Positions 11,179 through 34,595 of a stretch of 64,000 nucleotides of DNA are shown here, one piece after another. The translations under genes were made by a program, and so were the position numbers. The DNA is from an uncultured bacterium. Lineage in GTDB: Bacteria > Krumholzibacteriota > Krumholzibacteriia > LZORAL124-64-63. The notes under the pieces are model-generated. The model was not told the origin of the DNA, ran no database searches, and saw only the letters and a list, made by a program, of their open reading frames with translations. The stretch is from assembly GCA_903912525.1 (NCBI GenBank), contig CAIWHK010000025.1, forward strand, positions 136,881 to 200,880, read 5' to 3'. Numbering within the stretch: the stretch's first letter is position 1; every line of letters starts with the position of its first letter.

Positions 11179-13118
11179 CAGGTGCCGTCCCCCTTGCCGT
11201 CCCCGAGGGCCGGGCCGGCGCGGCGCAGGTCGCCGTCGCGCGCGGTCACGCCCGTCTGGTCGAGATATTCGAGCATCGGGATCCCGAGCTTGCGTGTCAG
11301 CCCGCTCAGCTCGCGGAACCCGCCGAAGGTCAGTTCCGGTTCAATCCTGAAGTGCGCCCGCAGGCGGGCCACCAGCGTGGCATAGGCGCGGGCGGAAACA
11401 AGGTACTCGCCACCGAGGGCCACCGCCCGTCCGTGATCGACCAGCCAACGAACCGCTTCGGCGGGCTTGAAATCCCGCAATGCGGCATCGGCTGCCGCCC
11501 GCTGGAACACCGGCGAACCGGCGGCCCAGTGGTCCAGTCCCGGCCAGTCCAGGCCCAGCCCGTCGAACTCGGCCGCGGCCTCGTCCATGGCGCGGCGCAG
11601 GCGTTCGCCCAGCTTCGGCCCCTCGGGCGACATCGCGATGCGGTCGCCGGCCACCACCCACAGGTCGGGCGCGGCCAGGGCGGCGCAGACGGCGTTCCAC
11701 TCGGCCACGCCACCGCCGAACGCGCAGCGCTGCCGCACTTCCTCGCGCGAGACGCCCAGCCGCAGCGGGTACTTCCGCGCGTACTCGGCGACCTGCGCCC
11801 CCACCGCCTCGGCCAGCGCCGCCAGCGCCTCGCGGTGGTAGGCGCGCGCGCCGATCACCTGCAGCAGCGGCAGTTCGGCCCAGGCAGCGGCGCTGTCGGC
11901 CGGCAACCCCGCCGTGCCGGCGTCCAGCAGCTTCTTGAGGAAGAGGTCCTCCGGCGAGCCGGTCTCCAGCACCTTCAACTGCGCCAGCGCGTCATTGTCG
12001 AAGCGCTTGTGTTGCGCGGGCGCGGCTTCGAGCACGACGGCGCCGGCAACGCTGACCATGGGCGAATAGAAACGCAGCACCAGCCGGTCGCCGCGCGCGG
12101 CCACCAGGTCCTCCTCCAGGTGCAGTTGCGCCAGGGCGGTGCGCGCGGCCGCGGCCGCCTCGCCGCCCATCTCCTGCACGTCCAGCAGCACGATGCGGCC
12201 GAGCACCTCGCGCCCGGCGTGGTGCACGTGCAAACGCTGCCGGTTCTTCACCGAGCGGCGGCAGTGCTTCATCAGGTCCACGCGGATGTCGAGCCGCTTC
12301 GTGGTGACGGCCGCGCGCGGGGCGACGACCTGCTGGCCGCGCGCCATGTCGTCGCGCTTGACCCCGTGCAGCGCCAGCGCCAGCCGCTGGCCCGAAGCGC
12401 CGCGCGGCGCCGGGCGGCCGTGCACCTGCACCTCGCGCACGCGCACCGGCAGCGCGCCGGGTTCGATCATCAGCTTGTCACCCTCGGCCACCGAGCCGCC
12501 CCAGCAGGTGCCGGTGACGACGACGCCGGCGCCCGGCATCGTGAACACGCGATCAACGGGCAGGCGGAACGCGCCCTGCTCGGCCCGCCGCGGCAGCGCC
12601 AGCGCCTCGGCCTTCAGCGCCGCGCGCAGTTCGTCCAACCCGGTGCGCGCGTGCGCCGACACGGGCACAATGGGCTTCCCGGCCAGGAACGTGCCGGCCA
12701 CCAGGTCGGCGGCCTCTTCCATCACGACACCGACCAGGTCCTCGTCCACGGCATCGGTCTTGGTCACGACCACGATGCCGCTGCGCACCTTCAGCGCGTC
12801 GAGGATCTCGAGGTGCTCGATCGTCTGGGGCATCACGCCTTCGTCGGCGGCGATGACCAGGAACGCCAGGTCCACGCCGCCGGCGCCCGAGACCATCTGC
12901 CGGACGAACTTCTCGTGGCCCGGCATGTCGACGACGCCCAGTTGGATGCCGTCGCCGAGGTCCAGCTCGGCGAAGCCCAGCTCGATGCTGATGCCCCGCT
13001 CCTGCTCTTCCTTCAGGCGGTCGGTGTTGGTGCCCGTCAGGGCCTGCACGAGCGCGGTCTTGCCGTGGTCGACATGGCCGGCGGCGCCGAGGATGAAGTG
13101 GCGGGAGGGCTCGGTCAT
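11178..13118 (-). CDS. selB: selenocysteine-specific translation elongation factor
   Basis: N-terminal GTPase (GHVDHGKT, DMPGHEKF, TKTD) followed by SelB-type winged-helix C-terminal extension; stop overlaps ispG start (ATGA). Confidence 0.8.
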   Translation of the reverse strand: MTEPSRHFILGAAGHVDHGKTALVQALTGTNTDRLKEEQERGISIELGFAELDLGDGIQLGVVDMPGHEKFVRQMVSGAGGVDLAFLVIAADEGVMPQTIEHLEILDALKVRSGIVVVTKTDAVDEDLVGVVMEEAADLVAGTFLAGKPIVPVSAHARTGLDELRAALKAEALALPRRAEQGAFRLPVDRVFTMPGAGVVVTGTCWGGSVAEGDKLMIEPGALPVRVREVQVHGRPAPRGASGQRLALALHGVKRDDMARGQQVVAPRAAVTTKRLDIRVDLMKHCRRSVKNRQRLHVHHAGREVLGRIVLLDVQEMGGEAAAAARTALAQLHLEEDLVAARGDRLVLRFYSPMVSVAGAVVLEAAPAQHKRFDNDALAQLKVLETGSPEDLFLKKLLDAGTAGLPADSAAAWAELPLLQVIGARAYHREALAALAEAVGAQVAEYARKYPLRLGVSREEVRQRCAFGGGVAEWNAVCAALAAPDLWVVAGDRIAMSPEGPKLGERLRRAMDEAAAEFDGLGLDWPGLDHWAAGSPVFQRAAADAALRDFKPAEAVRWLVDHGRAVALGGEYLVSARAYATLVARLRAHFRIEPELTFGGFRELSGLTRKLGIPMLEYLDQTGVTARDGDLRRAGPALGDGKGDGT

Positions 13119-20496: not shown

Positions 20497-21762
20497 CTAC
20501 GGGTTGCCGGCCGCGGCCAGCTCCTGGTAGCGCTTGAAACTCACGTCGGCACCGAGCGGGTCGCCGGTCTCCAGCTGGGCCATGCTCAGGTACAGGAAGC
20601 CCTGGGCGTTGCCGGGGAAGCGGCCGATCAGTTCGTTGCCCAGCTCGACGGCGCGCTTGAACAGACCGGACGCCTTGTCCAGCTTCTGTTGCTTGAGCGC
20701 CGGGTCGGCCTCGGTGGCCGCGGCGTCCTTGAGGGACTTGCCGTAGTTGAAGACCGTGCGGATGCGCGCCACCAGCGAGTTCTCGGTCGGGAACGTCTCG
20801 AGGATGATCGCGCGGTCGAGCACGCCGATGGCGTCGTCGAAGCGGCCGATCTCGGGCTTGCCGTACCACAGGCCGGCGCTCACCAGCATCCCGATGTTGT
20901 TCCCGTCGTTGTTCGTGTCGGCGTCCTTCTCGTACAGGTCGACGATCTTGACGTACATGTCCGCGGCGCGCTCGTAGTTCTTCTGCTCGGCCGCCAGGCT
21001 GGCGACCTGGATCAGCAGGTCGGTATCCTCGGCGTGCGCGGCCAGCAGGTCGTTGTAGATCTTCGCGGCATCGTCACTGCGGCCCAGCGTGGCCAGCACG
21101 TAGGCCTTGTCCAACTGCAGATCGTACGCCGTCGGATTAGCGACCAGCACCTGGTCCAGCATCTCCAGCGCCTCGGTCAGCAGCTGGGACTTCTTTTCCA
21201 CATATTCGCCCGTCTCGGACATCTGGATCTTCATGCGGGCGATGCTCTTGATCGGCGTCAGCGAATCGGGCAGCGCGGCGTAGGCCAGACGCATGTGGCC
21301 CTCGGCCTGCTCGTAGTAGCGGCTGTCCCAGTCGATCTTGGCCTGGCTCAGGCGCGCACGGTAATTGTAGGCCAGCGAGATATTGACCTTCTCGGTCCAC
21401 TCCGCGGGCTTCAGCTCGATGGCGCGCTTGTACGCCTTGTACGCCAGCTCGTAGTTCTTGATGGCCTCGGGGAAGTCATCCTTGGCCACGGCTTCCTCGG
21501 CCAGCTTGCTGTGCGCCTCGGCGAGGTAGTAGAAGGCGTCCGGCTCATCCTGCGTGAACTCGAAGCCCTCGTGGATCACCTGGACGGCCTTGTTGTAGTT
21601 CTGGTCGTCGATGTACAGGATCGCGCTGGTGGTGTGTGCCGAGCGACAGCCGGCCAGTCCGCCAAGGGCGGCGATGGCCACCAGGCCGGCCAGCATGAAG
21701 GCGCGCGCGAGCGTCCGGGCGCCAGGCGCCGGGCGGGTGGGTTCGGTTCCGTACATCAACAC
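20497..21762 (-). CDS. TPR repeat lipoprotein
   Basis: Lipobox LAGC after signal peptide, multiple TPR-like helical repeats; alternative start at MLAGLVAIA (21696). Confidence 0.55.
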   Translation of the reverse strand: MLMYGTEPTRPAPGARTLARAFMLAGLVAIAALGGLAGCRSAHTTSAILYIDDQNYNKAVQVIHEGFEFTQDEPDAFYYLAEAHSKLAEEAVAKDDFPEAIKNYELAYKAYKRAIELKPAEWTEKVNISLAYNYRARLSQAKIDWDSRYYEQAEGHMRLAYAALPDSLTPIKSIARMKIQMSETGEYVEKKSQLLTEALEMLDQVLVANPTAYDLQLDKAYVLATLGRSDDAAKIYNDLLAAHAEDTDLLIQVASLAAEQKNYERAADMYVKIVDLYEKDADTNNDGNNIGMLVSAGLWYGKPEIGRFDDAIGVLDRAIILETFPTENSLVARIRTVFNYGKSLKDAAATEADPALKQQKLDKASGLFKRAVELGNELIGRFPGNAQGFLYLSMAQLETGDPLGADVSFKRYQELAAAGNP

Positions 21763-21935
21763 GGTTTCCCCCTCGGGAGTGACAGGGCGGCGGCCAGGAT
21801 CGGTTGCGTCGGGTAACCCTGGCGGAGGTGGGGATGACGCCGGCGCGGCAGATGGCGCCGGCCAGCGGAGGCGCGCAGAAGCGGCCTTATTCGCTGTTAA
21901 TTAATAGGAAACCGGGCGCTTGGCTGTCAACCGCT

Positions 21936-22529
21936 TTATTCCTCGCGGTGCCTGCGGTTGCCGTCCCGAACGCCCTTGCCCCGCCGCTCATCGGGGCCCG
22001 CCGGGCGGTCGCCACCGCCCGGGCCGGGCCGCCCCGAATGCCACGGCTCCATCGGCAGCAGCTCCACATACCGGGTCCGTTGTGTCGGGGTCAGCACGTC
22101 GAACTCCTGCAGCAGGAACTCCTGGGTCAGCGAATCGAGGTCGGCCTGGGCATGCCGGACGCCCGCCAGCGCCGCCCGGATCGCCGCCGGGTCGAAGGTC
22201 GCGGCCTCGGACTGTTCGCGCAGGGCCCGCCGGGCGGCCTCGATACGCTCGCGATGGGCGCGCACGGTCGGGGCGTTGGCCGACTGCAACTGCTCCAGGC
22301 GCGCCGTCTGGGCCGGCTCGAGGTCCAGCACCGTGGCCAGCCGGTCGACCCGCCGGTGCATCATCCGCCGCCACGCCACGGAGTCGTCCGTGGCCGGCCG
22401 ATTGCGCCAGGCGCGCGCTGCGGCAGGGGGCCGCCGGGGTTCCTCGCGGAGCGCCCGGATGACGCTCCAGCCGAGGCCGACGTTCAGGCCCAGGGAAACC
22501 AGCAGGACCAGGCGCACCAGGCGGCTCAT
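21936..22529 (-). CDS. LTXXQ motif periplasmic protein (Spy/CpxP/ZraP family)
   Basis: Signal peptide MSRLVRLVLLVSLGLNVGLG; LTQEF and LTPTQRTRY LTXXQ motifs; start overlaps anti-sigma stop (ATGA). Confidence 0.6.
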   Translation of the reverse strand: MSRLVRLVLLVSLGLNVGLGWSVIRALREEPRRPPAAARAWRNRPATDDSVAWRRMMHRRVDRLATVLDLEPAQTARLEQLQSANAPTVRAHRERIEAARRALREQSEAATFDPAAIRAALAGVRHAQADLDSLTQEFLLQEFDVLTPTQRTRYVELLPMEPWHSGRPGPGGGDRPAGPDERRGKGVRDGNRRHREE

Positions 22530-23023
22530 TTCGTCCCTCCGTTGCCGGCGGACTGCCGGCTGTCGGTCACCTCGGCCAGCGCCAGCCACGAATCGGACAG
22601 GCCGCCGGAGGCCTGGTCGTCCCAGGTCGAGTCCTGGAGCCACACGCCGGCCAGGCTGCTGTCGTCAGTGTTGTCGTCGTCAGCCACTGCCGTGCCCCCC
22701 AGGGTTCCGGTCCAGCGGCCGACCAGCACACCCAGCGCCAGGGTCGCCACGGCCAGCGATGCGCGCGCGGTGGCGCTGCGGCCGAAGAACCAACCGGCGG
22801 CTGCCTGCCCGGTCGTCCGCGCCTGCACGCCCGACCACAGGTCGGCGCGCGTAGCCGTCGGCGGCACGGCCGCCGTCGCCAGGATGTCCCACGTCGCCCG
22901 CAGGCGGGCCGCCTCGGCGCAGCAGCCCTCGCACGCGGCCAGGTGCGCCTCGACTTCGCCGGCCCGGGCCGGGTCCAGTTCGCCGCCCAGATGGGCAGCC
23001 AGCATTCCGGTGACGTGTTTCAT
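22526..23023 (-). CDS. transmembrane zinc-finger (ZAS-type) anti-sigma factor
   Basis: HLAACEGCC (H-x3-C-x2-C) motif near N-terminus, single TM helix, start overlaps sigma-factor stop. Confidence 0.6.
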   Translation of the reverse strand: MKHVTGMLAAHLGGELDPARAGEVEAHLAACEGCCAEAARLRATWDILATAAVPPTATRADLWSGVQARTTGQAAAGWFFGRSATARASLAVATLALGVLVGRWTGTLGGTAVADDDNTDDSSLAGVWLQDSTWDDQASGGLSDSWLALAEVTDSRQSAGNGGTK

Positions 23024-23589
23024 GGCCTCTCGTCCTCCTGCGCCAGGTCGACCCGCAGGCCGGCCAGCGCGCGTTGGATCAGCGACTCGACGCCGGCCAG
23101 CGAAGTGCCCATCGTCTCGGCGACCTCCGTGTAGCGCATCCCCTGGAAGCGGTGGAGCACCAGGGCCTGCCGTTGCCGCTCCGGCAGCCGGGCGATGGCC
23201 GCGCGCACGACCTGCGCGGTCTGCTCGGCTTCGATCCCGCGGTCGGCCGCGGGCGTATTCGACGCCACGTCATGGCGTTCGGTGTCCAGCGGCAGCCACT
23301 TGAGCAATCTCGCCCGCCTGCCGCGGCTGCGCGCCAGGTTCGCCGCGATGCGCAGCACCCAGGGGCGGAACTTGCCTTCGGCCCGGTAGCGACCGGCCTG
23401 CCGGAAGACCCGCACGAAGGTCTCCTGCGCCAGGTCCTCCGCATCATCGCGCGAGCCGGTCATGTTGATCAGGAAGGCCAGCACGTCGTGCTGCCAGCGG
23501 TCGACGAGGAGACGGAACGCCGCCTCCTCGCCCGCCGCCGTCCGGGCCATCAGCGTGTCATCATCGATGTCCGGCCGCTGCTGACCCAC
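23020..23589 (-). CDS. ECF (sigma-70 family) RNA polymerase sigma factor
   Basis: Region 2 (FVRVFRQAGRYR...WVLRIAAN) and region 4 HTH (MRYTEVAETMGTSLAGVESLIQRA). Confidence 0.85.
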   Translation of the reverse strand: MGQQRPDIDDDTLMARTAAGEEAAFRLLVDRWQHDVLAFLINMTGSRDDAEDLAQETFVRVFRQAGRYRAEGKFRPWVLRIAANLARSRGRRARLLKWLPLDTERHDVASNTPAADRGIEAEQTAQVVRAAIARLPERQRQALVLHRFQGMRYTEVAETMGTSLAGVESLIQRALAGLRVDLAQEDERP

Positions 23590-23606
23590 GCTCGTCCGGC
23601 CTTTCG

Positions 23607-24239
23607 TCAGTCGGTCTTCTGGTCGGGCCGGTTCCGGTGCTGGCGGCGGCCGCCACGACGCTCGGCATCCATGCCGTCGGCGCCAGGCCGACCGGGGCCG
23701 CGGCCGCCGTGCATGTAGGGGCCACGCGGGCCGCCCGGACCGAAGCCGCCACGCCCCCCGCCGATCATCATCAGCTTGTCGCGCTGGTCTTCGGTCAGCA
23801 GCTTGCGCATGGCCAGCCGATCCAGCAGGCGACCCGCCTGCAACTGGCTGCGCAGGTCACCGGCCTGCTTCGACAGGGCGAGCACCGTCTTCTCGGAAGG
23901 GTCGTCCTTCATCATCTCGCCCTGCAGGTCGTGCCGGAGCAGGCGCGCCTGCTTGCGCAGCGGCAGGTCACGGGCGCGGCCGGCCTCGAAGATCTTCGCG
24001 ATCGCGTCCTGCTGCGCGTCGGTCAGTTCCAGTCGCCGCGCCATGCGGGCGCGGAAGCCGGGTTCGAAATCGGCGGTGTCGTCGTCGGCGTCGGCGCGCG
24101 CGGCCATGCCGGGGACGTCGGGGCCGTCAGCGGCCAGGTCGTCGTCCTGCGCCAGGACCGGGATGGCGGCGGTCGCCAGGACCGCCAGGACCACCCCCAG
24201 GAGGGCGCGCCGGATCGGGAATCGGATCGGCTTCAACAT
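23607..24239 (-). CDS. LTXXQ motif periplasmic protein (Spy/CpxP/ZraP family), Gly-rich C-terminus
   Basis: Signal peptide; LTDAQQDAI and LTEDQRDKL LTXXQ motifs; 17 nt upstream of the ECF sigma gene. Confidence 0.6.
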   Translation of the reverse strand: MLKPIRFPIRRALLGVVLAVLATAAIPVLAQDDDLAADGPDVPGMAARADADDDTADFEPGFRARMARRLELTDAQQDAIAKIFEAGRARDLPLRKQARLLRHDLQGEMMKDDPSEKTVLALSKQAGDLRSQLQAGRLLDRLAMRKLLTEDQRDKLMMIGGGRGGFGPGGPRGPYMHGGRGPGRPGADGMDAERRGGRRQHRNRPDQKTD

Positions 24240-24344
24240 GATGGTCACCTCTGCCTGTTCGCGCCCCCGAGGGGCGCCTGCCTTGTGGTCCGCGGGATTC
24301 ATGCATGCGCGAGCCCTAACGCGGCAGGTCGGCGGCGCCAGCGG

Positions 24345-26399
24345 TCAACGTTGCAGATCCTCGACCACCTTGGCGAGGTTGGTCGTCAGGTCGGGGTGGC
24401 CGGGGGCCACGCGCAGGCCCTCGCGGAAGACGTCGGCGGCCTCGGCCAGCGACCCGCCGCGGGCCAGCAGGATGCCCAGGTCGACGTAGGCCTGGGGATT
24501 GCCCGGGTGCCAGCGGCGCAGTTCGCGCGCCGCGGCCAGCGCCTGCTCGCGACGGCCGGCCTGCTCGCTCAGCACGGCGGACAGGTGCAGGAGATCGACG
24601 TCGCGCGGGTGGGCCTGCAACGCCTGCAGCACGCGCGGGTAGGCCTCGTCGCGGCGCTTCTGCTCGAGCTGCAGGCGGATGACCTGCTTCAGCAGGTCGA
24701 GGTTCTGCGAGACGGCGCCGCAACCCTCCAGGAGCGTCTTCTCGGCGCCGGCGGCATCGCCGCGCTCGTACTGCACCATCGCCAGGCCCAGCCACGGCGC
24801 CGGGCCGCCGGCCTTGCCCACCAGCGCCTGGCGGTAGAGTGCCTCGGCGCGCGCCAATGAACCGTCGTCGTGTGTGGCGGAACCGACCTGGGCCCAACGC
24901 AGCGCCTCGTTGGCAGCAGCCATCGCCTTCCAGTCGCGGCGAATGTTCCCCAGACCCCAGGGCACGACCAGCAGCACGGCGACCAGCCACGGCGCCCACG
25001 CACGCCACTGCCGCGCGCGCGGCAGGCCATCGCCCAGCAGGCGCGCGATCGCCAGGCCGGCCAGCAGCGCCAACGCCGGCACCAGCGCCAAGCGGTAGCG
25101 CGAGACCACGAAGAAGACGCTCTGCACCGCCAGCAGCGCCAGCAGAACGACGGCCCACCAGCGCGATGCCGGCAGGCGCCAGGCGCCGGCCAGCCCGACC
25201 AGGCCCAGGACCGCGATCAGCGCATACGGCGCCACGAGCGCGCGCAGCGAAGGCGCCGAGTTCGTCCAGCCGTCGATGGTGGTCAACTGGTCGATCTCCC
25301 AACCCTGGAGGTGCAGGCGCACCTTCCTGAGCCACAGCCCGGCCGCGCGCGCCGGATGCTGGCGGATCGAGGCCAGGGCTGCGTCGGCCCACAGGCTGTC
25401 CGCCTGCGCGAGGCTGACCGAGGGCCGGTCGAAGCGCTCGGCCAGGAAGGCGCGGCCGGCGGGATCGAGGAGCCACGAGCCGGGCACCACGGCCACATAG
25501 AAGCCGTTCGCCTCCGGCCCGTTGCCGATGTAGAGATTCACGCCGCCGTTCAGCGCCGGGCCAACCAGCCGGCCGGCCGCCTTCGAATTGCGGGCCGCCG
25601 CCGGGGCCAGCACCACGAGCGCACCGAGAACCACCGCCGCGACGGCCACCGCGCGATGCGCACGGCTGCCCGCCCGGGCCCCCGCGGCCGCCGGTCGGGC
25701 CGGCCACGCCGCCGCAGCCATGCCCACGGGCAACAGCGCCACCGACGTGCCGCGCAGCAGCGTGGCCAGGCCGACCACCACGCCCAGCAGGGCCGCGCGC
25801 GCCACGACGGGCCAGGCGGGCGCGGGCTTCGCGGCCGGGTCCACGCGCCAGGTCGCATCCCAGGTCGCGAGCGCCAGGAAGACAGTCACCAGGAAGGCGA
25901 GCGGCACATCGAGCAGGATGGTGACTGCGTACACCGCGGCCGGCCGATACAGCGCGAACAGCGCCGCCGGCAGCCACACGACCAGTGTCCGCTTCCAGCC
26001 CCCGGGGACCAGCGACGCCAGATGGCGGCCCGCCATCACGCGCAGCAACGCGACGATGCCCAGCCAGCAGCCGAACTGGACCAGGCGGATGCCGCGCAAC
26101 TGTTCCGGACGATAGACGCGCGCGGTCGGGTCGGCCGGGGCGCTGCCGCTCAGCTCGATCAGACGCGGGTAGAGGGGCGACATGTAGGCGGGCTCGGTCG
26201 GGTCCGCTGGGGCCGCGGCGCGGTCGAGGTAGTAGATCTCGTCGAGGATGGGCGCGCGCCCGAAGACCGAGCGTTCGGCCTGCGGCAGGAACACGGCCCA
26301 GAACGCGGCCAGCAGCAGGCCGGCGACGAGCAGGCCCAGGAAGCGGCGAGGCGCGCCGCTCCCGGCCGCAGGCGCAGCAAAGCCGCGCCGCGCGCTCAC
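24345..26399 (-). CDS. GT39 (PMT/ArnT-like) membrane glycosyltransferase with C-terminal TPR repeats (TMTC-like)
   Basis: Multi-TM N-terminal region with DE loop motif (ILDEIYY), C-terminal TPR repeats; start proposed at GTG overlapping ychF stop (GTGA), uncertain. Confidence 0.6.
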   Translation of the reverse strand: MSARRGFAAPAAGSGAPRRFLGLLVAGLLLAAFWAVFLPQAERSVFGRAPILDEIYYLDRAAAPADPTEPAYMSPLYPRLIELSGSAPADPTARVYRPEQLRGIRLVQFGCWLGIVALLRVMAGRHLASLVPGGWKRTLVVWLPAALFALYRPAAVYAVTILLDVPLAFLVTVFLALATWDATWRVDPAAKPAPAWPVVARAALLGVVVGLATLLRGTSVALLPVGMAAAAWPARPAAAGARAGSRAHRAVAVAAVVLGALVVLAPAAARNSKAAGRLVGPALNGGVNLYIGNGPEANGFYVAVVPGSWLLDPAGRAFLAERFDRPSVSLAQADSLWADAALASIRQHPARAAGLWLRKVRLHLQGWEIDQLTTIDGWTNSAPSLRALVAPYALIAVLGLVGLAGAWRLPASRWWAVVLLALLAVQSVFFVVSRYRLALVPALALLAGLAIARLLGDGLPRARQWRAWAPWLVAVLLVVPWGLGNIRRDWKAMAAANEALRWAQVGSATHDDGSLARAEALYRQALVGKAGGPAPWLGLAMVQYERGDAAGAEKTLLEGCGAVSQNLDLLKQVIRLQLEQKRRDEAYPRVLQALQAHPRDVDLLHLSAVLSEQAGRREQALAAARELRRWHPGNPQAYVDLGILLARGGSLAEAADVFREGLRVAPGHPDLTTNLAKVVEDLQR

Positions 26400-27451
26400 A
26401 CGCTGAACCTGATCTCGATGATGTCGCCGTCCTGGACCACGTAGGCCTTGCCCTCGAGGCGCACCTTGTTGGCGGCCTTGGCCGCCGACATGTCGCCGGC
26501 GGCGATCAGGTCCTCGTACCCGGTGACCTCGGCGCGGATGAAGCCGCGCTGCAGGTCCGAGTGGATGGCGCCCGCGGCGACCGGCGCCGTCGAGCCGCGA
26601 CGCACCGTCCAGGCGCGGCACTCGTCCGGCCCCACGGTGAAGAAGCTCTGCAGTTCGAGCGCGGCGTAGGCGGCGCGGATCATGCTGCCGAATGCGGGTT
26701 CGGCGATGCCCATGTCGGCCAGGAACTCGGCGGCTTCCTCGGCCGACAGTTCGGCCAGCTCGGCCTCGATGCGCGCGCACAGCGACACAACGGCGGCGCC
26801 CGCCTGCTCGGCGGCGGCCATCACGTCGGCGCCGGGATCGGTGCTTTCCTCGTGGTTGAGCACGATGATCATCGGCTTGCTGGTCAGGAACGCGTACCCC
26901 ACCGAGAGCTTGGCGTCGTCGACCGTCAGCGTCAGTTCACGCAACGGGCGGCCGGCCTCGAGCTGCTCCTTGAAGCGCTCCATCAGAGGCTGTTCGAGCG
27001 GGTTGGCCACCTTGCCCAGCCGCGCCTTGTCCTTGATCAGGCGATCGAGGCGGTTCTCGACGATCTGCAGGTCGGCCATGACCAGTTCGAGCGCGAGGTT
27101 CTCGATCTCGCCCTTCGGGTCGGACGGGCCGTAGCCGCCGTCGAAGCAGCGCACGACCTGCGCCAGCGCATCGACCTTGCGGGCATGCTCCAGGAAGCGG
27201 ACCGCTTCGCGCGCGCCGTCGGCGCCGACGCCGCCGGCGAACCCGGGGACATCGACCCACGAGATGGCCGCGTACACGGTGCGCTTCGGCTTGAACATCG
27301 CCGTCAGGCGGTCCAGGCGCGCGTCGGGCACATGCCCGGTCGCCAGGTACGGATCGACGCCGCCCTGGCCGGTGGGCCGGCTGCCGCCGGTGATGACGTT
27401 ATGGAGGGTGGTCTTGCCCGTGAACTTCAGACCGATCAGCCCGACCTGCAC
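26396..27451 (-). CDS. ychF: redox-regulated ATPase YchF (Obg family GTPase)
   Basis: MQVGLIGLKFTGKTTLHN... G1-G4 motifs and C-terminal TGS domain. Confidence 0.9.
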   Translation of the reverse strand: MQVGLIGLKFTGKTTLHNVITGGSRPTGQGGVDPYLATGHVPDARLDRLTAMFKPKRTVYAAISWVDVPGFAGGVGADGAREAVRFLEHARKVDALAQVVRCFDGGYGPSDPKGEIENLALELVMADLQIVENRLDRLIKDKARLGKVANPLEQPLMERFKEQLEAGRPLRELTLTVDDAKLSVGYAFLTSKPMIIVLNHEESTDPGADVMAAAEQAGAAVVSLCARIEAELAELSAEEAAEFLADMGIAEPAFGSMIRAAYAALELQSFFTVGPDECRAWTVRRGSTAPVAAGAIHSDLQRGFIRAEVTGYEDLIAAGDMSAAKAANKVRLEGKAYVVQDGDIIEIRFSV

Positions 27452-27983: not shown

Positions 27984-28271
27984 GGCTCTTCCCGTCCCGG
28001 GAGCACCCGGGGTCGCAAGGTCGTGGGGCCGGCTAACGGCATTCCCCCGAGGGGCTAACGGACAAGATACCAGATCGGCCCCGCGCTTGCTACCACCGGG
28101 AGGGACGTTCGGCCGGCGCCCCCAATGGGGTCAAGAACGGCTTTTCATGTGTTTCCTGTTGCCGCGCCGGGTGCCGAACCGGCATATTCAGGGAACAAAC
28201 CCCTGATTCGGCTCCTTACACGCCGAGCCCCGGAGGGATCCGGGCGACACGTCTGGGTTTGTGCACGGAGG

Positions 28272-30017
28272 ATGGATCGTTTGCGCCGCCTGCTCCTGAC
28301 AATCTTCATCACCTGCGCAGCGACCGCGCTTCCCGCCTGGGGGGCCGATCTTCGCGTTCCCGGCACCTATGCCACGATCAGCGCGGCGCTCTCGTCCGCG
28401 TCCGCCGGTGACCGTGTGCTCGTGACCGCCGGGACGTACCGCGAGCACGGGCTGGTCCTTCGCGACGGTGTTGTCCTGGCCGGCGCCGGCCCATCGCCCG
28501 ACGCCGTCATCATCGACGGCCAGGACGCCGGCCGCATCCTCACCTGCGAGAACACGACGCGCGCCGCGGAAGTGCGCAACCTGACCTTTACGCGCGGCCG
28601 CGCCGTCGGCGCCACGCTGCGCGAAGGCAGCGGCGGCGCCATCCTGTGCAACCATGCCGCGCTGACCATCGCCGACTGTCATTTCCGCGGCAACAGCGCC
28701 GAACAGAACGGCGGCGCCGTCTGGATTCTCGAGGCGTCGCCCACGATCACCGGCTGCGTGTTCAGCGGCAACACGGCCGGCGGCGGCGGCGGCGGCGTCG
28801 ATTGCACGCTCAACGCATCGCCCAGCCTGCAGAACTGCCGCTTCGAGAACAACCAGGCCGACTGGGGCGCCGGCCTGTCGTGCCGCGACATCTCGTCGCC
28901 CGTCGTCATCTCCACGATGTTCATCGCCAACACGACCGTCGGGACCCGCGGCTACGGCGGCGGCGCGTTCGCCGACCTCGACTCGAAGCCCGCCTTCCTG
29001 TCCTGCACCTTCACGGCGAACCAGGCGCGCTACGGCGGCGCGGTGGCGAACTTCGCCGGCGCCGACGCCACGCTGGTGCGCTGCACGCTGGTCGGCAACC
29101 ACGGCACCTGGCGCGGCGCAGGCATCTACACGAACAACGCCTCGACGACGATCGGCGCGAGCATCATCGCCTTCCATGACGGCCCCGGCGTGTTCTCGGG
29201 CGGGACCTACGGCCCGCAACTGAACCAGTGCGACCTCTACGGGAACACCGGCGGCAACTGGACGGGCGCCGCGGCGCCCGCAGGCATCGGAGCCGCAAAC
29301 CTGGCGCGCAACCCGCTGTTCTGCGTCGCTTCCGACCCGGCGACGCTGACGTTCGCCCTGCAGGACGGCTCGCCCTGCCACCCCGACAGCAACGGGGGCC
29401 TGACGCTCGGTGCCTGGCCTGCCGGCTGCGGCGCTCCCCTGCCCTCCACGCTCCAACTGGCCGCGAACTGGGCCGGCAACCAGGCCCGCCTGGCCTGGAG
29501 CCTGCCGGACGGCCTGGGCGTGGTGCCCGCGTTCCGGCTGACGGGCGCGCTGGCGACCACGCCCGAGGTAACCTGGGAGATCCCGTTCACCGACCAGGGC
29601 GGCGGGCAGTTCGTCGCCGACGACCCCGGCGCCGCGCTGCAGGGCGAAGGCCCGTTCACCTGGTGCCTGTATGCGCAGTTCGCGGGCGGGGACTGGACGC
29701 TGATGGCGCAGGTGACCATGGACCTGCCGCGCGACGTGCCGGGCGTCAGCCATGTCATGGCGGCGCCGAATCCGTTCAACCCAGCGACGTCGATCCGCTT
29801 CCAGCTTGCCGTGTCCCAGCGCGTGCGCGTGACGGTTTACGACATGGTGGGACGGCTGGTGGCGAGACTGGCCGACCAGGTCTTCACGGTCGGCGAGAAC
29901 GCGGTCACCTGGGACGGGCAGGCCGACGATGGTCGCGACCTGGCGTCGGGCACCTACCTGGTCCTGGTCGACAGCCCGGGGCGCGAGGTCTCGACCAAGG
30001 TCACGCTGTTCAAATAA
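28272..30017 (+). CDS. right-handed parallel beta-helix repeat protein with C-terminal T9SS-type (NPFNP / FlgD-Ig-like) sorting domain
   Basis: Signal peptide after GGAGG RBS; repeated NxxGGA/pectin-lyase-fold repeats; C-terminus NPFNPATSIRFQL...VYDMVGRLV...WDGQADDGRDLASGTYLVLV...KVTLFK. Confidence 0.7.
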   Translation: MDRLRRLLLTIFITCAATALPAWGADLRVPGTYATISAALSSASAGDRVLVTAGTYREHGLVLRDGVVLAGAGPSPDAVIIDGQDAGRILTCENTTRAAEVRNLTFTRGRAVGATLREGSGGAILCNHAALTIADCHFRGNSAEQNGGAVWILEASPTITGCVFSGNTAGGGGGGVDCTLNASPSLQNCRFENNQADWGAGLSCRDISSPVVISTMFIANTTVGTRGYGGGAFADLDSKPAFLSCTFTANQARYGGAVANFAGADATLVRCTLVGNHGTWRGAGIYTNNASTTIGASIIAFHDGPGVFSGGTYGPQLNQCDLYGNTGGNWTGAAAPAGIGAANLARNPLFCVASDPATLTFALQDGSPCHPDSNGGLTLGAWPAGCGAPLPSTLQLAANWAGNQARLAWSLPDGLGVVPAFRLTGALATTPEVTWEIPFTDQGGGQFVADDPGAALQGEGPFTWCLYAQFAGGDWTLMAQVTMDLPRDVPGVSHVMAAPNPFNPATSIRFQLAVSQRVRVTVYDMVGRLVARLADQVFTVGENAVTWDGQADDGRDLASGTYLVLVDSPGREVSTKVTLFK

Positions 30018-30933
30018 CAGGGCGCGGCTGGTCAACCGGCCGGAAATCCCAGGCAGGAGCGCGGCCGCCGCGCCGACGGGCCACGATGCCCGCGGCAGGG
30101 CGGCCGTCGTCGTCGAAGCCCTCCTCGTGCGCCAGCACGTCCCAGTGCGGCGCCGCGAAGGCGCGGACCAGCTCGCCCGGCCGCAGGCGATGGCGCGCGG
30201 TGACATCGTCGGGCAGGCCCGGCGCCTCGCGGAACGTGCGCACGACCGCCACCCCACCATCGCCCACCAGGTCGCCCATCCGCGCCAGCACGCCGCGATC
30301 CAGACAGCGGATGTTCACGACCACGGCCCAGGGGCCGGGCGGCAACGCGTCGACGGCGCGCACGTCGGCGTCGACCACGCGCAGCGGGACGCAGCGACTG
30401 GCGGCCAGCCGCTCTGCCAGCACGAGGGCCTCCGGTTGCCAGTCGACGCCGGTGACGCGGTAGCCGCGCGCGGCCAGCCAGACCGCGGCGCGGCCGGAAC
30501 CGCAACCGAGGTCGAGCACCGGGCCGAGCGCCGGCGGCGGCAGCAGTCCGGCGTGCGCCACGAGCCAGTGCGGCGGCTGCCACAGCGTGCGGTCGCTGGG
30601 GCCGCGTTCGACCCATTGGGCGGGCAGTCGTTCCAGCGCCGATTCATCGACAGCGATGGCCGCCAGGCGCGCGCGGCCTCGGCCGGCCAGCGCTCGAGCC
30701 AGCCCCTGCGCCCGCTCACCGGTGGCCGCCACAACCAGCAGCGGCCGGTGGCGCGGCGGCAGGAAAATCGACGGCAGACCGGCATCCAGCTGCGCTGGAT
30801 CAGCGGCCAGGTCGGCCACCCCGGGCATCGACACGGCACCGCTCAGGTGCCCTGCCGCGAACACCCCGCACTCCCTCTCGTCCAGGACAGCCGCAGACGG
30901 GTCCTGGGCCAGGAAACCCACGACTGCCTGCAT
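30010..30933 (-). CDS. fusion of a Cys-less rhodanese-homology domain and a TehB-like class I SAM methyltransferase
   Basis: N-terminal rhodanese fold lacking the CRxGxR cysteine; C-terminal VLDLGCGSGRAAVWLAARGYRVTGVD SAM-binding motif resembling TehB; start codon uncertain (ATG 30933 or upstream GTG). Confidence 0.55.
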   Translation of the reverse strand: MQAVVGFLAQDPSAAVLDERECGVFAAGHLSGAVSMPGVADLAADPAQLDAGLPSIFLPPRHRPLLVVAATGERAQGLARALAGRGRARLAAIAVDESALERLPAQWVERGPSDRTLWQPPHWLVAHAGLLPPPALGPVLDLGCGSGRAAVWLAARGYRVTGVDWQPEALVLAERLAASRCVPLRVVDADVRAVDALPPGPWAVVVNIRCLDRGVLARMGDLVGDGGVAVVRTFREAPGLPDDVTARHRLRPGELVRAFAAPHWDVLAHEEGFDDDGRPAAGIVARRRGGRAPAWDFRPVDQPRPVI

Positions 30934-31123: not shown

Positions 31124-33751
31124 ATGCCATCGATCCGCAAGTTCGTCGTCACGCCCAACCTGCCCGACCCGCTCAAGCCGTTGCTCGACATCGCGCGCAA
31201 CGTCTGGTGGAGCTGGAATGTCGAGGCCATCTCGCTGCTCCGGCGCGTCGATCCCGACCAGTGGGACCGGCACGCCGGCAACCCGGTGGCGGTGCTCGGC
31301 TCACTGTCGGCGCAGCGGGTGCGCGAACTCGAGCGCGACCAGGCGTTCCTGGCCCACCTCGAGCGCGTGCAGGGCGACCTCGAGCGCTACCTGACGCACC
31401 CGACGTGGTACGCAAGCGAGCACCAGGGCGTCGGCGAGGGCCTGGTCGGCTATTTCTCGCTGGAGTTCGGCCTGCACGAATCGTTGCCGCTGTACTCCGG
31501 CGGCCTGGGCATCCTCGCGGGCGACCACCTGAAGTCCGCCACCGACCTGGGCATCCCCCTGGTCGGCGTGGGCCTGGCCTACCAGTCCGGCTACTTCCGC
31601 CAGTACCTGAACCATGACGGCTGGCAGATGGAGGAGTACCCGGTCAACGACTTCTACAACATGTCGATGTCGCTGGAGCGTGACAAGGACGGCGCGCCGC
31701 GCCTGATCGAGGTGCACTACCCGGGCCGCTCCATCTTCGCGCAGATCTGGCGCCTGCAGGTGGGCCGCAACCCCCTGTTCCTGCTGGACACCAACGTGAT
31801 GGAGAACCAGCCCGACGACCGCGACCTGACCGCGCGCCTGTACGGCGGCGACAACGACATGCGCATCCGTCAGGAGATCATGCTGGGCATCGGCGGCCTG
31901 CGCGCCCTGATCGCGCTGGGGCTCGAGCCCACGGTGTGCCACATGAACGAGGGCCACTCGGCGTTCCTGGCGCTCGAGCGCATCAACCTGCTGATGAAGC
32001 ACCGCAAGCTGGCGTTCGAGACGGCGTTCGAGATCGTGCGCGCCAGCAGCATCTTCACCACGCACACGCCGGTGCCCGCGGGCAACGACCACTTCCCGCC
32101 CGAGCTGGTGCGCACCTACCTGGCGCGCAAGGCCGACGAGATGGGTATCGGCATCGATCGGCTGCTGGCGCTGGGTCGCCAGGACCCGCAAAACACGGCC
32201 GAGACCTTCTGCATGACGGTGCTGGCGCTGCGGCTGAGCCGATTCGCCAACGGCGTCAGCGAGCTGCACGGCCACGTCTCGCGCAACATGTGGCAGCGCG
32301 TGTGGCCCGAGGTGCCCGAGAACGAGATCCCCATCACCCACGTGACCAACGGCATCCACACCCGCAGCTGGCTGTGCTCGGAGATCGCGCGCCTGTACGA
32401 CCGCTATCTCGGGCCCCGCTGGTACGAGGAGCCCACGAACAAGACGTTGTGGGACCGCGTGGACCAGATCCCGGACGCCGAGCTCTGGCGCTCGCACGAG
32501 CGCATGCGCGAGCGGCTGGTCGGCTTCACCCGCAGCCGGCTGCGCAAGCAACTGAAGCGCCGCGGCGCCAACCGCATCTGGATCAAGGCGGCCAGCGAGG
32601 CGCTGGACCCCGAGGCCCTGACCATCGGGTTCGCGCGCCGGTTCGCCACGTACAAGCGCGCGGCGCTGTTGCTTTCGGACCCGGAGCGGCTGAGCCGCAT
32701 CCTGAACAACCCGGACCGCCCGGTGCAGCTGATCTTCGCCGGCAAGGCCCACCCGAAGGACCACCCGGGCAAGGAAGTCATCCGCCAGCTGGTGCACATG
32801 GCCGAGCGCGAGGAGTTCCGCAAGCGGATCGTCTTCGTCGAGGACTACAACATCGAGGTGGCGCGCTACCTGGTGCAGGGCGTGGACGTGTGGCTGAACA
32901 ATCCGCGGCGGCCGCTCGAAGCCAGCGGCACCAGCGGCATGAAGGTGCCGCCCAACGGCGGCATCAACCTGTCGGTGCTCGACGGCTGGTGGTGCGAGGG
33001 ATACAAGACGGACAATGGCTGGGCCATCGGCGCCGGCGAGGAATACGACGACCAGAACTACCAGGACGACGTCGAGAGCACGGCGCTGTACGACCTGCTC
33101 GAGAACGAGATCGTGCCGACGTTCTACGACCGCGGCCTGGACGGCGTGCCGCGCGAGTGGACGCGCATCATGAAGAACTCCATGCGCACAGTGAACGCCG
33201 AGTTCAACACCAACCGCATGGTCGAGGAATACACCGAGCGCTTCTACATCCCCTGCCTGGACAACATGCGGCGCCTGGCCGCGGACAACCACGCGCTGGC
33301 CGCCGACCTGGCCGACTGGCGCCGGCGGCTGCACGCGAACTGGCATGGCGTGCAGATCCTGTCCGTCGATGCACCGCCGCTCAAGGCGCAGCCGATGGGC
33401 GCCATGCTGCCGGTCACGGCACAGGTGCGGCTGGGCCCGATCAGCTCCGACGAGGTGCTGGTCGAGGTCTACCACGGCCTGCTGGACACGAACGGCCACA
33501 TCGACAACGGCGAGACCGCCACGATGTTCGCCCAGGGCAAGCCCACGAACGACGGCGTGGTCACCTTCAAGGGCGAGATCCCCTGCCGGCGCGCCGGGCG
33601 CCGCGGGTTCTCGGTCCGCCTGGTGCCGCGCAAGGACGGTGTGCCGCTGGACCGCTTCGAGACCGGCCTGATCTGCTGGTGGCACGACGAGTCGGTCGAA
33701 CCGTCGCCGACGCCGCAGGGCGCCTCGGGACAGACGGTGCACTCGCACTAG
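31124..33751 (+). CDS. glgP: alpha-glucan phosphorylase (GT35, GlgP-family)
   Basis: Full-length alpha-glucan family phosphorylase; pyridoxal-phosphate lysine region (SGTSGMKVPPNGG); AGGAGA RBS before ATG 31124. Confidence 0.85.
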   Translation: MPSIRKFVVTPNLPDPLKPLLDIARNVWWSWNVEAISLLRRVDPDQWDRHAGNPVAVLGSLSAQRVRELERDQAFLAHLERVQGDLERYLTHPTWYASEHQGVGEGLVGYFSLEFGLHESLPLYSGGLGILAGDHLKSATDLGIPLVGVGLAYQSGYFRQYLNHDGWQMEEYPVNDFYNMSMSLERDKDGAPRLIEVHYPGRSIFAQIWRLQVGRNPLFLLDTNVMENQPDDRDLTARLYGGDNDMRIRQEIMLGIGGLRALIALGLEPTVCHMNEGHSAFLALERINLLMKHRKLAFETAFEIVRASSIFTTHTPVPAGNDHFPPELVRTYLARKADEMGIGIDRLLALGRQDPQNTAETFCMTVLALRLSRFANGVSELHGHVSRNMWQRVWPEVPENEIPITHVTNGIHTRSWLCSEIARLYDRYLGPRWYEEPTNKTLWDRVDQIPDAELWRSHERMRERLVGFTRSRLRKQLKRRGANRIWIKAASEALDPEALTIGFARRFATYKRAALLLSDPERLSRILNNPDRPVQLIFAGKAHPKDHPGKEVIRQLVHMAEREEFRKRIVFVEDYNIEVARYLVQGVDVWLNNPRRPLEASGTSGMKVPPNGGINLSVLDGWWCEGYKTDNGWAIGAGEEYDDQNYQDDVESTALYDLLENEIVPTFYDRGLDGVPREWTRIMKNSMRTVNAEFNTNRMVEEYTERFYIPCLDNMRRLAADNHALAADLADWRRRLHANWHGVQILSVDAPPLKAQPMGAMLPVTAQVRLGPISSDEVLVEVYHGLLDTNGHIDNGETATMFAQGKPTNDGVVTFKGEIPCRRAGRRGFSVRLVPRKDGVPLDRFETGLICWWHDESVEPSPTPQGASGQTVHSH

Positions 33752-33776
33752 GCGATCCGGTCCTGGTGAAGGAAAG

Positions 33777-33816
33777 CGCCGGCCGCTCCCTGCAGGGGGC
33801 GGCCGGCGTGTTTTTG
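33777..33816 (+). terminator. Rho-independent terminator after glgP
   Basis: CGCCGGCCGC-tccctgcaggggg-GCGGCCGGCG hairpin followed by TGTTTTTG. Confidence 0.7.
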
Positions 33817-33836
33817 TGCAGCAGGGCGACAGGCCT

Positions 33837-34595
33837 TCAGGCGCCGCGTTCCACGCGCACGACGGCCGTATGCACGATGCGGTCGTGTGACAACCGGCGA
33901 TTCGGCTCGCGCCACAGCGAAAGCAGCCCGAGGCCCAACGTCGCGGGGATCTCGAGCAGGCCGGCCGCGCGCTCGAAGCTATCGAAGAGCGACAGTTTCT
34001 CGCCGCCGAGATGCACGACGCGGATGCCGAGCAGTCGCTTGCCCAGGGTCTGCCCGCGCCGCGAGGCGTGGCACAACGTGAAGTACAGCAACACCACGCC
34101 GAACAGGGCCACAAGGCGCAGCGGGGTCGGCATCAGCCGATGGATCTCGAAACGGATCGACTTCTCGGGCACCACGCCGCCCTCGGTCTCGTCGAAGTTG
34201 AGGGAGTACATGAGATCGTAGCCCCTGAGCGCCTCGATGGCCGCGGCGGTGTCATGACGCTCGACGGCCAGCTCGACCTCAGCCGGGACGCCGGGCATCT
34301 CCGCGCGGACGAGCACGGGCGCCAGGTCGCCCCAGGCGACGTCGGCCTGCTCGGGCGTGGGCTTGCCGTACAGGGTCGTCGCGGCCCGGTAGGCGGCCGG
34401 CTCGGCCAGGTTCAGGTACAGGGCGGCCGCACCGATCGCGACCGCCAACATCGGCGCCAGCATGACCACATAGTCGAGCGCGAGGGCAGCCGCGCGGCGG
34501 CCCGGCGAGGCGAGCTCGCGGCCGACCAGGGCGCGCGAGACTTGCAATGATTCCCCAGTCAACAGCCTGCGGCTGCCGGTCTGTCGGTGGCCCAT
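33837..34595 (-). CDS. RDD family membrane protein
   Basis: RDD-family signature region (ASRRGQTLGKRLLGIRVV) with flanking TM helices; start codon uncertain (34595 or 34607). Confidence 0.5.
   Translation of the reverse strand: MGHRQTGSRRLLTGESLQVSRALVGRELASPGRRAAALALDYVVMLAPMLAVAIGAAALYLNLAEPAAYRAATTLYGKPTPEQADVAWGDLAPVLVRAEMPGVPAEVELAVERHDTAAAIEALRGYDLMYSLNFDETEGGVVPEKSIRFEIHRLMPTPLRLVALFGVVLLYFTLCHASRRGQTLGKRLLGIRVVHLGGEKLSLFDSFERAAGLLEIPATLGLGLLSLWREPNRRLSHDRIVHTAVVRVERGA

Follow-up and report, generated by a model that had tools for sequence, protein, structure and literature searches.

Organization of the cassette and evidence that its genes are real

The window analyzed here, a stretch of 64,000 nucleotides (64 kb) from contig CAIWHK010000025.1 of an uncultured bacterium assigned to the Krumholzibacteriota, carries at 21936-24239 a four-gene operon on the minus strand, with the gene order A-B-C-D. 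This cassette encodes an extracytoplasmic function (ECF) sigma factor and a zinc-finger anti-sigma factor of the ZAS type, flanked on either side by a protein with the periplasmic LTXXQ fold, and it is preceded by a predicted promoter. Its features, in positions of the window, are the following:

23607-24239, minus strand: gene A, 210 amino acids (aa); secreted LTXXQ protein, ZraP-like
23020-23589, minus strand: gene B, 189 aa, GTG start; ECF (group 4) sigma factor
22526-23023, minus strand: gene C, 165 aa; single-pass ZAS anti-sigma factor
21936-22529, minus strand: gene D, 197 aa; membrane-anchored periplasmic CnrX-like LTXXQ protein
24318-24343, minus strand: predicted ECF-type promoter, CGCTGG-N16-CGTT, invariant in 12 of 12 distinct loci

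A 17-nt gap lies between genes A and B, and B/C and C/D overlap by 4 bases each, in the form ATGA; an original prediction, made from this DNA alone, had described four tightly coupled minus-strand genes with a 17-nt gap and two ATGA-type overlaps, and this layout matches exactly. The start of gene A is an ATG at 24239, with a GAGG ribosome-binding site before it and a classical signal peptide after it. Neither a sigma-70-type promoter nor an intrinsic terminator was detected inside the cassette, and searches of 21500-24600 for Rfam families, sigma-70 promoters, intrinsic terminators and notable repeats were negative or stayed at chance level.

With a G+C content of about 70%, the window contains long spurious open reading frames (ORFs) on both strands. 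The four genes are nevertheless real and not chance products of a GC-rich sequence, because a tblastn search recovered all of them in every other locus of sufficient length (12 distinct loci). All four proteins also exceeded Pfam gathering cut-offs, including those for the LTXXQ, Sigma70_r2/r4 and zf-HC2 domains that had been called before any database search; none of the four reached an NCBIfam equivalog cut-off.

Conservation of the cassette within its lineage

Gene neighborhoods were compared for nine homologs and seven GTDB genomes, yielding 12 distinct loci that span the whole cassette and carry the names Candidatus Krumholzibacteriia or Krumholzibacteriota. The A-B-C-D order was kept in all 12 (tblastn), and the cassette was always located between ychF and rho: one flank consists of ychF and, usually, a TPR or PMT-like membrane protein after it, the other of a TPR lipoprotein, rho, rpmE and DUF1385. 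The cassette belongs to the core genome of a Krumholzibacteriota-type lineage. The C/D ATGA overlap was retained in all loci with gene calls, as was the B/C overlap in all but one of them (L014). Gene A was found in each of the 12 loci covering its position, so that the concern raised with the original prediction, that the flanking genes might not be conserved partners, was examined with the outcome that the LTXXQ genes are kept in every related locus examined, all of one lineage.

Identity to the window across these loci was 57-93% for B, 41-70% for A, 34-69% for C and 30-82% for D. Sigma factor B is far better conserved across the lineage than its partners C and D; it had 2660 matches at E≤1e-20, and the best 120 of these 2660 were all at least 56% identical, while detectable homologs numbered 31 for anti-sigma factor C and 24 for D. 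A profile search of genome contigs with the alignment of D returned seven loci only, all from the same lineage, and a tblastn search of D against 72,556 plasmids gave no match; the presence of the architecture in other phyla was judged from the published ECF classification. Two of the compared loci have peculiarities of their own. L012 is labelled Fibrobacteraceae, though it is syntenic with the Krumholzibacteriota loci. At L002:859-1203, the gene call for the A homolog covers no more than its last 114 aa and has no Pfam match; tblastn similarity extends further upstream (760-1014, matching A residues 76-160), indicating a start-site or frameshift problem rather than gene loss.

The ECF sigma factor and its ZAS anti-sigma factor

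Protein B matched Sigma70_r2 (57.3 bits) and Sigma70_r4_2 (59.6 bits), as well as the sigma70-ECF model TIGR02937 (94.5 bits, cut-off 42.9). No region 3 was found; with regions 1.1 and 3 absent and a length of 189 aa, B is an ECF (group 4) sigma factor. Its best solved relatives are AlgU/RpoE-type sigma factors (80 and 69 bits); CnrH reaches only 49 bits. Within a small set of labelled ECF sequences, the best pairwise match of B was to ECF281s4 (31% identity, 81 bits).

Protein C scored 31.4 bits against zf-HC2 (cut-off 22.2) and has the features of a class-I ZAS protein, with a cytoplasmic anti-sigma domain. Its predicted zinc ligands H3, H27, C31 and C34, the last three of which constitute an H-x3-C-x2-C motif, are unchanged across 19 homologs and 13 loci. 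When the family profile of C was aligned to ChrR, these four residues landed on His-His-Cys-Cys residues of that protein, which we take to be its zinc ligands H6, H31, C35 and C38. In ChrR, this site has a structural role and does not function as a thiol switch; RsrA, by comparison, uses Cys11. A single membrane helix of C spans residues ~86-105 (~22709-22768), with a conserved WFFG motif beside the membrane, followed by a periplasmic tail (residues ~106-165; 43-59 residues long among homologs) in which W128, W134 and L147 are invariant. The C-terminal end is likewise conserved and reads GGTK in the closer group of homologs. An anti-sigma homolog at L016:4558-5007 lacks the near-invariant WFFG motif, though it keeps the four zinc ligands and a D partner.

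The tail of C is acidic in all 12 loci measured (net charge -6 to -14), while the periplasmic part of D and mature A are neutral to basic. This contrast in charge is compatible, if weakly, with a docking-peptide role of the tail.

The original prediction had presented C as a redox- or zinc-sensing anti-sigma factor. Its H-x3-C-x2-C motif and membrane helix are confirmed, but the redox component fits poorly with a ChrR-like His-His-Cys-Cys site. Were C a cytoplasmic thiol/redox switch like RsrA, with the LTXXQ proteins incidental to it, the invariance of the motif and the zf-HC2 score would be expected; the fourth ligand, however, is His3 and not Cys, and the site aligns residue for residue with that of ChrR. 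An extra cysteine of the window protein, Cys35, is replaced by Arg in most homologs, and the RsrA model scored C at only 14.6 bits against a cut-off of 62.5. Moreover, C is membrane-anchored with a conserved periplasmic tail, and no thioredoxin or other redox gene occurs in or beside the operon. A redox switch of this kind is therefore considered very improbable, and the zinc site of C, as judged from its alignment, appears to be structural and ChrR-like, with nothing indicating thiol-based redox sensing.

Two LTXXQ proteins, predicted to be anchored (D) and secreted (A)

Protein D matched two Pfam families, Metal_resist (PF13801; 45.6 bits, cut-off 29.2) and LTXXQ (28.5 bits, cut-off 24.3). 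It begins with a membrane helix (residues 4-24) bearing the motif SLGLNxGLG, continues with a helical hairpin (~49-160) that contains a degenerate LEPAQ and an LTPTQ motif along with an invariant DSL..E, and ends in a Gly/Pro/Arg-rich tail. An AlphaFold2 model built from 18 sequences had predicted local distance difference test (pLDDT) values of 85-97 over residues 50-160, with an N-terminal helix at residues 3-26. In a Foldseek comparison of this model against the PDB, the top 15 matches were CnrX or NccX (target-normalised TM-score 0.53-0.75), followed by Spy, STV, CpxP and ZraP. With its PF13801 match, N-terminal anchor and predicted CnrX fold, D falls within the CnrX/NccX type of protein.

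Protein A has a typical cleavable signal peptide (residues 1-30, with cleavage between VLA and Q; an ending in LA before Q recurs in all loci), an acidic N-terminal region, a helical hairpin (~63-160) with the LTXXQ motifs LTDAQ and LTEDQ, and a Gly/Arg-rich tail; its Pfam score for LTXXQ (PF07813) was 31.1 bits (cut-off 24.3). A single-sequence AlphaFold2 model is a helical hairpin with core pLDDT of ~84-96, and its top six Foldseek matches in the PDB were chains of the ZraP entry 3lay (target-normalised TM-score 0.78-0.88, root-mean-square deviation 1.3-2.0 Å), with CpxP, CnrX and Spy after them. The likeness of A to ZraP, as modeled, is one of fold only: A remained far below the equivalog cut-offs for ZraP, Spy and CpxP (e.g., 15.2 bits for the ZraP model NF008584, cut-off 200). 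When A, D and their family profiles were compared with PDB chains by sequence, all matches stayed below threshold (LpoA, STV, ZraP and Spy; E 0.2-0.5), and the relationships were drawn from fold comparison instead. Between A and D, BLASTP found no similarity indicative of paralogy beyond the Gly-rich tails, and a profile-profile comparison aligned only the first LTXXQ motif. Most A homologs (L003, L005, L009-L012 and L014-L017) carry a cysteine in the Gly-rich C-terminal tail, often as G-x-C-D-G, and several have Gly/His/Met-rich N-terminal regions; the A proteins of the window and of L001 have lost all cysteines and have an Asp-rich N-terminal region instead.

The N termini of the two proteins differ in conservation. 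The membrane helix is the best conserved part of D, with a mean pairwise identity of 69.7% compared with 41.8% for the periplasmic domain, whereas the signal peptide of A has a mean pairwise identity of 32.5%. Because the N terminus of D is highly conserved and that of A is cleavable and variable, D is read as membrane-anchored in the manner of CnrX and NccX, and A as a soluble periplasmic protein. Accordingly, of the two signal peptides first proposed for the flanking proteins, that of A is typical and cleavable, while that of D appears to be a retained anchor; the Gly-rich tail first ascribed to one of the two proteins is present in both.

CnrX is a periplasmic sensor that controls the anti-sigma factor CnrY via periplasmic docking and membrane-helix contacts, and its metal ligands are H42, H46, E63, H119 and M123 (PMC6851896). 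To compare these positions, the sequence of CnrXs was confirmed against PDB entry 2y39 and aligned to the D family by hhalign, which placed D residues 66-158 without gaps on CnrXs residues 17-109. The five ligands correspond to V61, A65, Q82, F138 and E142 of D, so that none of the five is conserved, and the periplasmic domain of D contains no invariant His, Cys or Met across 16-18 homologs.

These results bear on the possibility that the cassette is a CnrYXH-type metal sensor or resistance regulator, in which D binds Ni, Co, Zn or Cu to release the sigma factor and A is a zinc-dependent chaperone like ZraP. The best Pfam family of D is indeed named 'Heavy-metal resistance' (PF13801), the top structural matches are CnrX/NccX for D (all of the top 15) and ZraP for A, the A homologs of several loci combine Gly/His/Met/Cys-rich N-terminal regions with a CDG motif in the tail, and published summaries of ECF281, ECF290 and ECF111 infer a heavy-metal role. 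Against this stand the loss of all five CnrX ligands and the lack of any invariant His, Cys or Met in the periplasmic domain of D. The Cys/His-rich stretches of A are not conserved either, and the A protein of the window has no cysteine at all. Genes for RND, CDF, P-type ATPase or multicopper oxidase proteins are absent within ~10 kb, and the locus is core and syntenic in its lineage, unlike typical accessory metal-resistance determinants. A metal-responsive cassette is thus rather unlikely, and the original designation as a metal-stress cassette is not sustained, given a D protein without the CnrX ligands, housekeeping neighbors and no efflux system; the 'metal-stress' label rests on the name of a Pfam family and not on features of the proteins.

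A predicted promoter upstream of gene A

In an alignment of the DNA upstream of gene A, the elements CGCTGG and CGTT, separated by a 16-nt spacer and situated ~70 nt ahead of the gene, were invariant in 12 of 12 distinct loci. The flanking bases and the spacer sequence vary between loci, while the length of the spacer is fixed, and the aligned loci range from very GC-rich to AT-rich in base composition. CGTT is usually embedded in GCCGCGTTAGG. One locus, L012, was left out of this alignment, as a run of N (masked or unassembled) at ~3050-3160 covers its promoter region. In the window, the -35-like CGCTGG lies at 24338-24343 and the -10-like CGTT at 24318-24321 (minus strand); the motif starts 1 nt past the stop codon of the upstream TPR/GT-C gene, ~75 nt before the start of A. 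Bipartite motifs with fixed spacing and a CGTT -10 element are typical of ECF promoters.

CGCTGG-N16-CGTT has a single match in the 64-kb window (both strands), a count equal to chance expectation, and a search of the window for further copies, exact or with one mismatch, yielded only in-gene near-matches at chance level and no regulon members. Since one match is expected by chance, the case for a promoter is made by position and phylogenetic footprint and not by the count; the 10 to 14 invariant bases of the motif are too few for specificity at metagenome scale. Based on this footprint, CGCTGG-N16-CGTT is proposed to be an ECF-type promoter for the whole operon, which is probably expressed as a single A-B-C-D transcript driven by B itself. 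In complete genomes of the lineage, the predicted motif could serve for regulon prediction.

Most loci also share a GCATG(C) box ~9-14 nt after CGTT (within 24290-24317, minus strand, in the window), which may indicate where transcription starts or represent a further regulatory site.

Proposed mechanism

Taken together, the cassette is interpreted as a self-contained envelope-stress signaling operon, probably autoregulated, in which a CnrX-like three-component switch operates without metal specificity, with D as the tethered partner of C and A as a secreted effector. A probability of roughly one half is assigned to this reading. Under it, sigma factor B would be retained at the inner membrane through the single-pass ZAS anti-sigma factor C, whose zinc site would be structural. 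D, anchored through a conserved membrane helix of its own and kept at a fixed ratio to C by translational coupling, would engage both the acidic, Trp-containing tail and the membrane helix of C. A periplasmic disturbance, for which misfolded or unassembled envelope proteins are a likelier candidate than a specific metal, would alter the D-C contact, and the sigma factor would be released either allosterically, as for CnrX/CnrY, or through exposure of C to regulated proteolysis, as for RseB/RseA. The freed sigma factor would then transcribe the operon from CGCTGG-N16-CGTT upstream of A, and A would accumulate as a periplasmic effector (a holdase), possibly also as a feedback damper in the way that CpxP and ZraP act on their kinases. 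The earlier suggestion that the LTXXQ proteins may modulate the anti-sigma factor is in this respect plausible, with the nearest structural matches of D being CnrX and NccX, sensors of the kind that controls CnrY.

Alternatively, A and D might be co-expressed effector chaperones only, with C subject to generic regulated proteolysis by a site-1 protease and then RseP. Spy, a pure effector chaperone of the same fold, is among the structural matches of both proteins, ECF operons often hold members of their own regulon, and a protease might recognize the conserved C-terminal end of C (GGTK in the closer group). However, the anchor of D is conserved far above its soluble domain, and a free chaperone has little need of an anchor; the start of D overlaps the anti-sigma stop codon in every locus, implying a fixed proportion of the two proteins; and the nearest structural relatives of D are the membrane-anchored signaling proteins CnrX/NccX, not Spy. 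These features make an effector-only role for A and D unlikely, and the tethered-partner reading is preferred.

Several observations weigh against the preferred reading or limit its reach. The most distant D homologs have a His at the position of CnrX E63, so that some metal binding is possible. The structural model of A was built from one sequence and has a mean pLDDT of 66, and the Foldseek E-values for the A and D models are only ~3e-3 to 1e-2; support for their folds comes from match probability and TM-score and from top matches that agree with one another. The -35-like CGCTGG is without the AAC core typical of ECF promoters, and the motif could be a regulatory site of another kind. Finally, every locus comes from a single lineage that also conserves the housekeeping flanks, so that conservation of the cassette is inseparable from that of the whole ychF-rho region, and synteny alone is no proof that A is functionally linked to B-C-D.

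A broader and more doubtful extension would make the cassette the primary switch for envelope stress throughout an uncultured phylum, running on an ECF sigma/anti-sigma pair the logic of Cpx, where one LTXXQ protein serves as inhibitor as well as product and misfolded periplasmic clients titrate it away. D would then be a metal-blind descendant of the CnrX fold, a membrane-tethered co-anti-sigma factor that reads folding stress and signals to the ZAS protein via membrane-helix contacts; the ZraP-like A would close the feedback loop, and the sigma factor, recognizing the unusual -35 element CGCTGG, would define an unclassified ECF group.

Genes surrounding the cassette

Within ~10 kb, the cassette is accompanied by ispG, selB, a PAP2 protein, an EPSP-synthase-fold enzyme, prmC, prfA, DUF1385, rho, the TPR lipoprotein, the TPR membrane protein, ychF and a methyltransferase, with no metal transporter among them. 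The gene immediately upstream (24345-26399, minus strand) codes for a large membrane protein whose C-terminal part contains TPR repeats; its L014 homolog has a weak PMT (GT-C glycosyltransferase) match. It was listed as an 811-aa ORF at 24345-26780, overlapping ychF; its true start is probably near 26399 and not at 26780, because the related loci start this gene at the ychF stop codon. L005/L013 and L017 lack the gene, and in them ychF lies immediately before the cassette.

At 11178-13118 (minus strand), a SelB-type selenocysteine-specific elongation factor with GTP_EFTU and SelB beta-barrel and winged-helix domains is encoded; the organism therefore probably uses selenocysteine. Two further ORFs on the minus strand, of 690 aa (28188-30260) and 937 aa (31301-34114), had no Pfam match at E≤1e-5; in this GC-rich DNA they may be spurious, or they may be genes without an assigned function. 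Plus-strand ORFs of similar length overlap them.

Comparison with known systems

The original prediction had considered the architecture not well described, noting that CpxP, Spy and ZraP are under the control of two-component systems. The latter is correct, but CnrX, the founding structure of PF13801, was overlooked: in the proteobacterial CnrYXH, an ECF sigma factor is already paired with a periplasmic partner of LTXXQ fold, and comparable arrangements are catalogued as ECF281, ECF111 and ECF290. Like the cassette, CnrYXH/NccYXH of Cupriavidus metallidurans (ECF291) combines an ECF sigma factor, a single-pass anti-sigma factor and an anchored protein of the LTXXQ/PF13801 fold, and it shares the proposed logic, in which the sensor engages the short periplasmic tail and the membrane helix of the anti-sigma factor. 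The two systems differ in several respects. The anti-sigma factor is a class-I ZAS protein here, whereas CnrY is a minimal class-II one; the order is sigma, anti-sigma, sensor here and cnrY-cnrX-cnrH there; the Ni/Co ligands (zero of five conserved) and an adjacent cnrCBAT-like efflux operon are lacking; sigma factor B is nearer to AlgU/RpoE (80 bits) than to CnrH (49 bits); and the cassette adds a secreted LTXXQ gene before the sigma gene. A literature search for characterized ECF systems with a Spy- or CpxP-like partner found none beyond CnrYXH; an Azospirillum operon consisting of RpoE8 and a hypothetical protein plus a 'periplasmic heavy metal sensor' was mentioned incidentally.

Secreted LTXXQ proteins that are both pathway products and periplasmic modulators or chaperones are known from the CpxP-CpxA and ZraP-ZraSR systems of Enterobacteria, and the titles of the matching PDB entries are in line with such roles. 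ZraP is the best structural match of A, and the likeness extends to a Gly-rich C-terminal tail; however, the His-rich zinc motifs of ZraP are not conserved in A, and those systems signal through histidine kinases instead of an ECF sigma/anti-sigma pair. A functional analogy can also be drawn to sigmaE-RseA-RseB of E. coli, in which a core ECF sigma factor for envelope stress, a single-pass anti-sigma factor and a periplasmic protein that binds the periplasmic part of this anti-sigma factor are co-transcribed. RseA, however, is not a ZAS protein and the fold of RseB is unrelated to LTXXQ, so that the likeness is one of logic, with no homology claimed. The ChrR-sigmaE pair of Rhodobacter sphaeroides has the same class-I anti-sigma domain and the same His-His-Cys-Cys zinc site as C, but ChrR is soluble with a C-terminal cupin sensor domain, while C is membrane-anchored with a short acidic periplasmic tail.

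In the published ECF classification 2.0 (Casas-Pastor et al. 2021, PMC7826278), group ECF281 has a zinc-finger anti-sigma factor with one membrane helix at position +1 and, in subgroup s2, a heavy-metal resistance protein at +2. ECF111 has an anti-sigma factor with one membrane helix at +1 and an LTXXQ or Metal_resist protein at +2, ECF290 a membrane-bound Metal_resist protein with one membrane helix at +2, and ECF03s10 an LTXXQ protein at +2 (PMC7826278). The neighborhoods of ECF281 s2, ECF111 and ECF290 match the B-C-D part of the cassette, with C and D exactly at the +1 and +2 positions of ECF281. In contrast, the summaries of these three groups mention no LTXXQ gene at -1, and the phyla given for them do not include a Krumholzibacteriota-type lineage. 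The promoters predicted for ECF281, GGAACTT (or GGAAGTT)...GTCTAA, and for ECF111, TTGAACCT...GTCTAAA, also differ from the CGCTGG-N16-CGTT found here. None of the three groups has an experimentally studied member with the sigma-ZAS-LTXXQ architecture.

The design of a CnrX-type sensor, an anti-sigma factor and an ECF sigma factor is therefore not limited to proteobacterial metal-resistance islands; here it forms a core, housekeeping-linked locus of an uncultured phylum, with a ZAS anti-sigma factor, a lost metal site and an added ZraP-like protein. The finding opens no long-standing question. The proposed mechanism, if true, would make LTXXQ-fold proteins general periplasmic modulators of both histidine kinases and anti-sigma factors; 'heavy-metal resistance', the Pfam label that functional summaries of ECF groups have taken over, would then be misleading for many groups. 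The B-C-D core is an already catalogued architecture, and the cassette varies known arrangements and is not a new kind of system; what is new is its ZraP-like first gene, placing an LTXXQ protein at -1, together with its lineage, its promoter motif and a metal site that has been lost.

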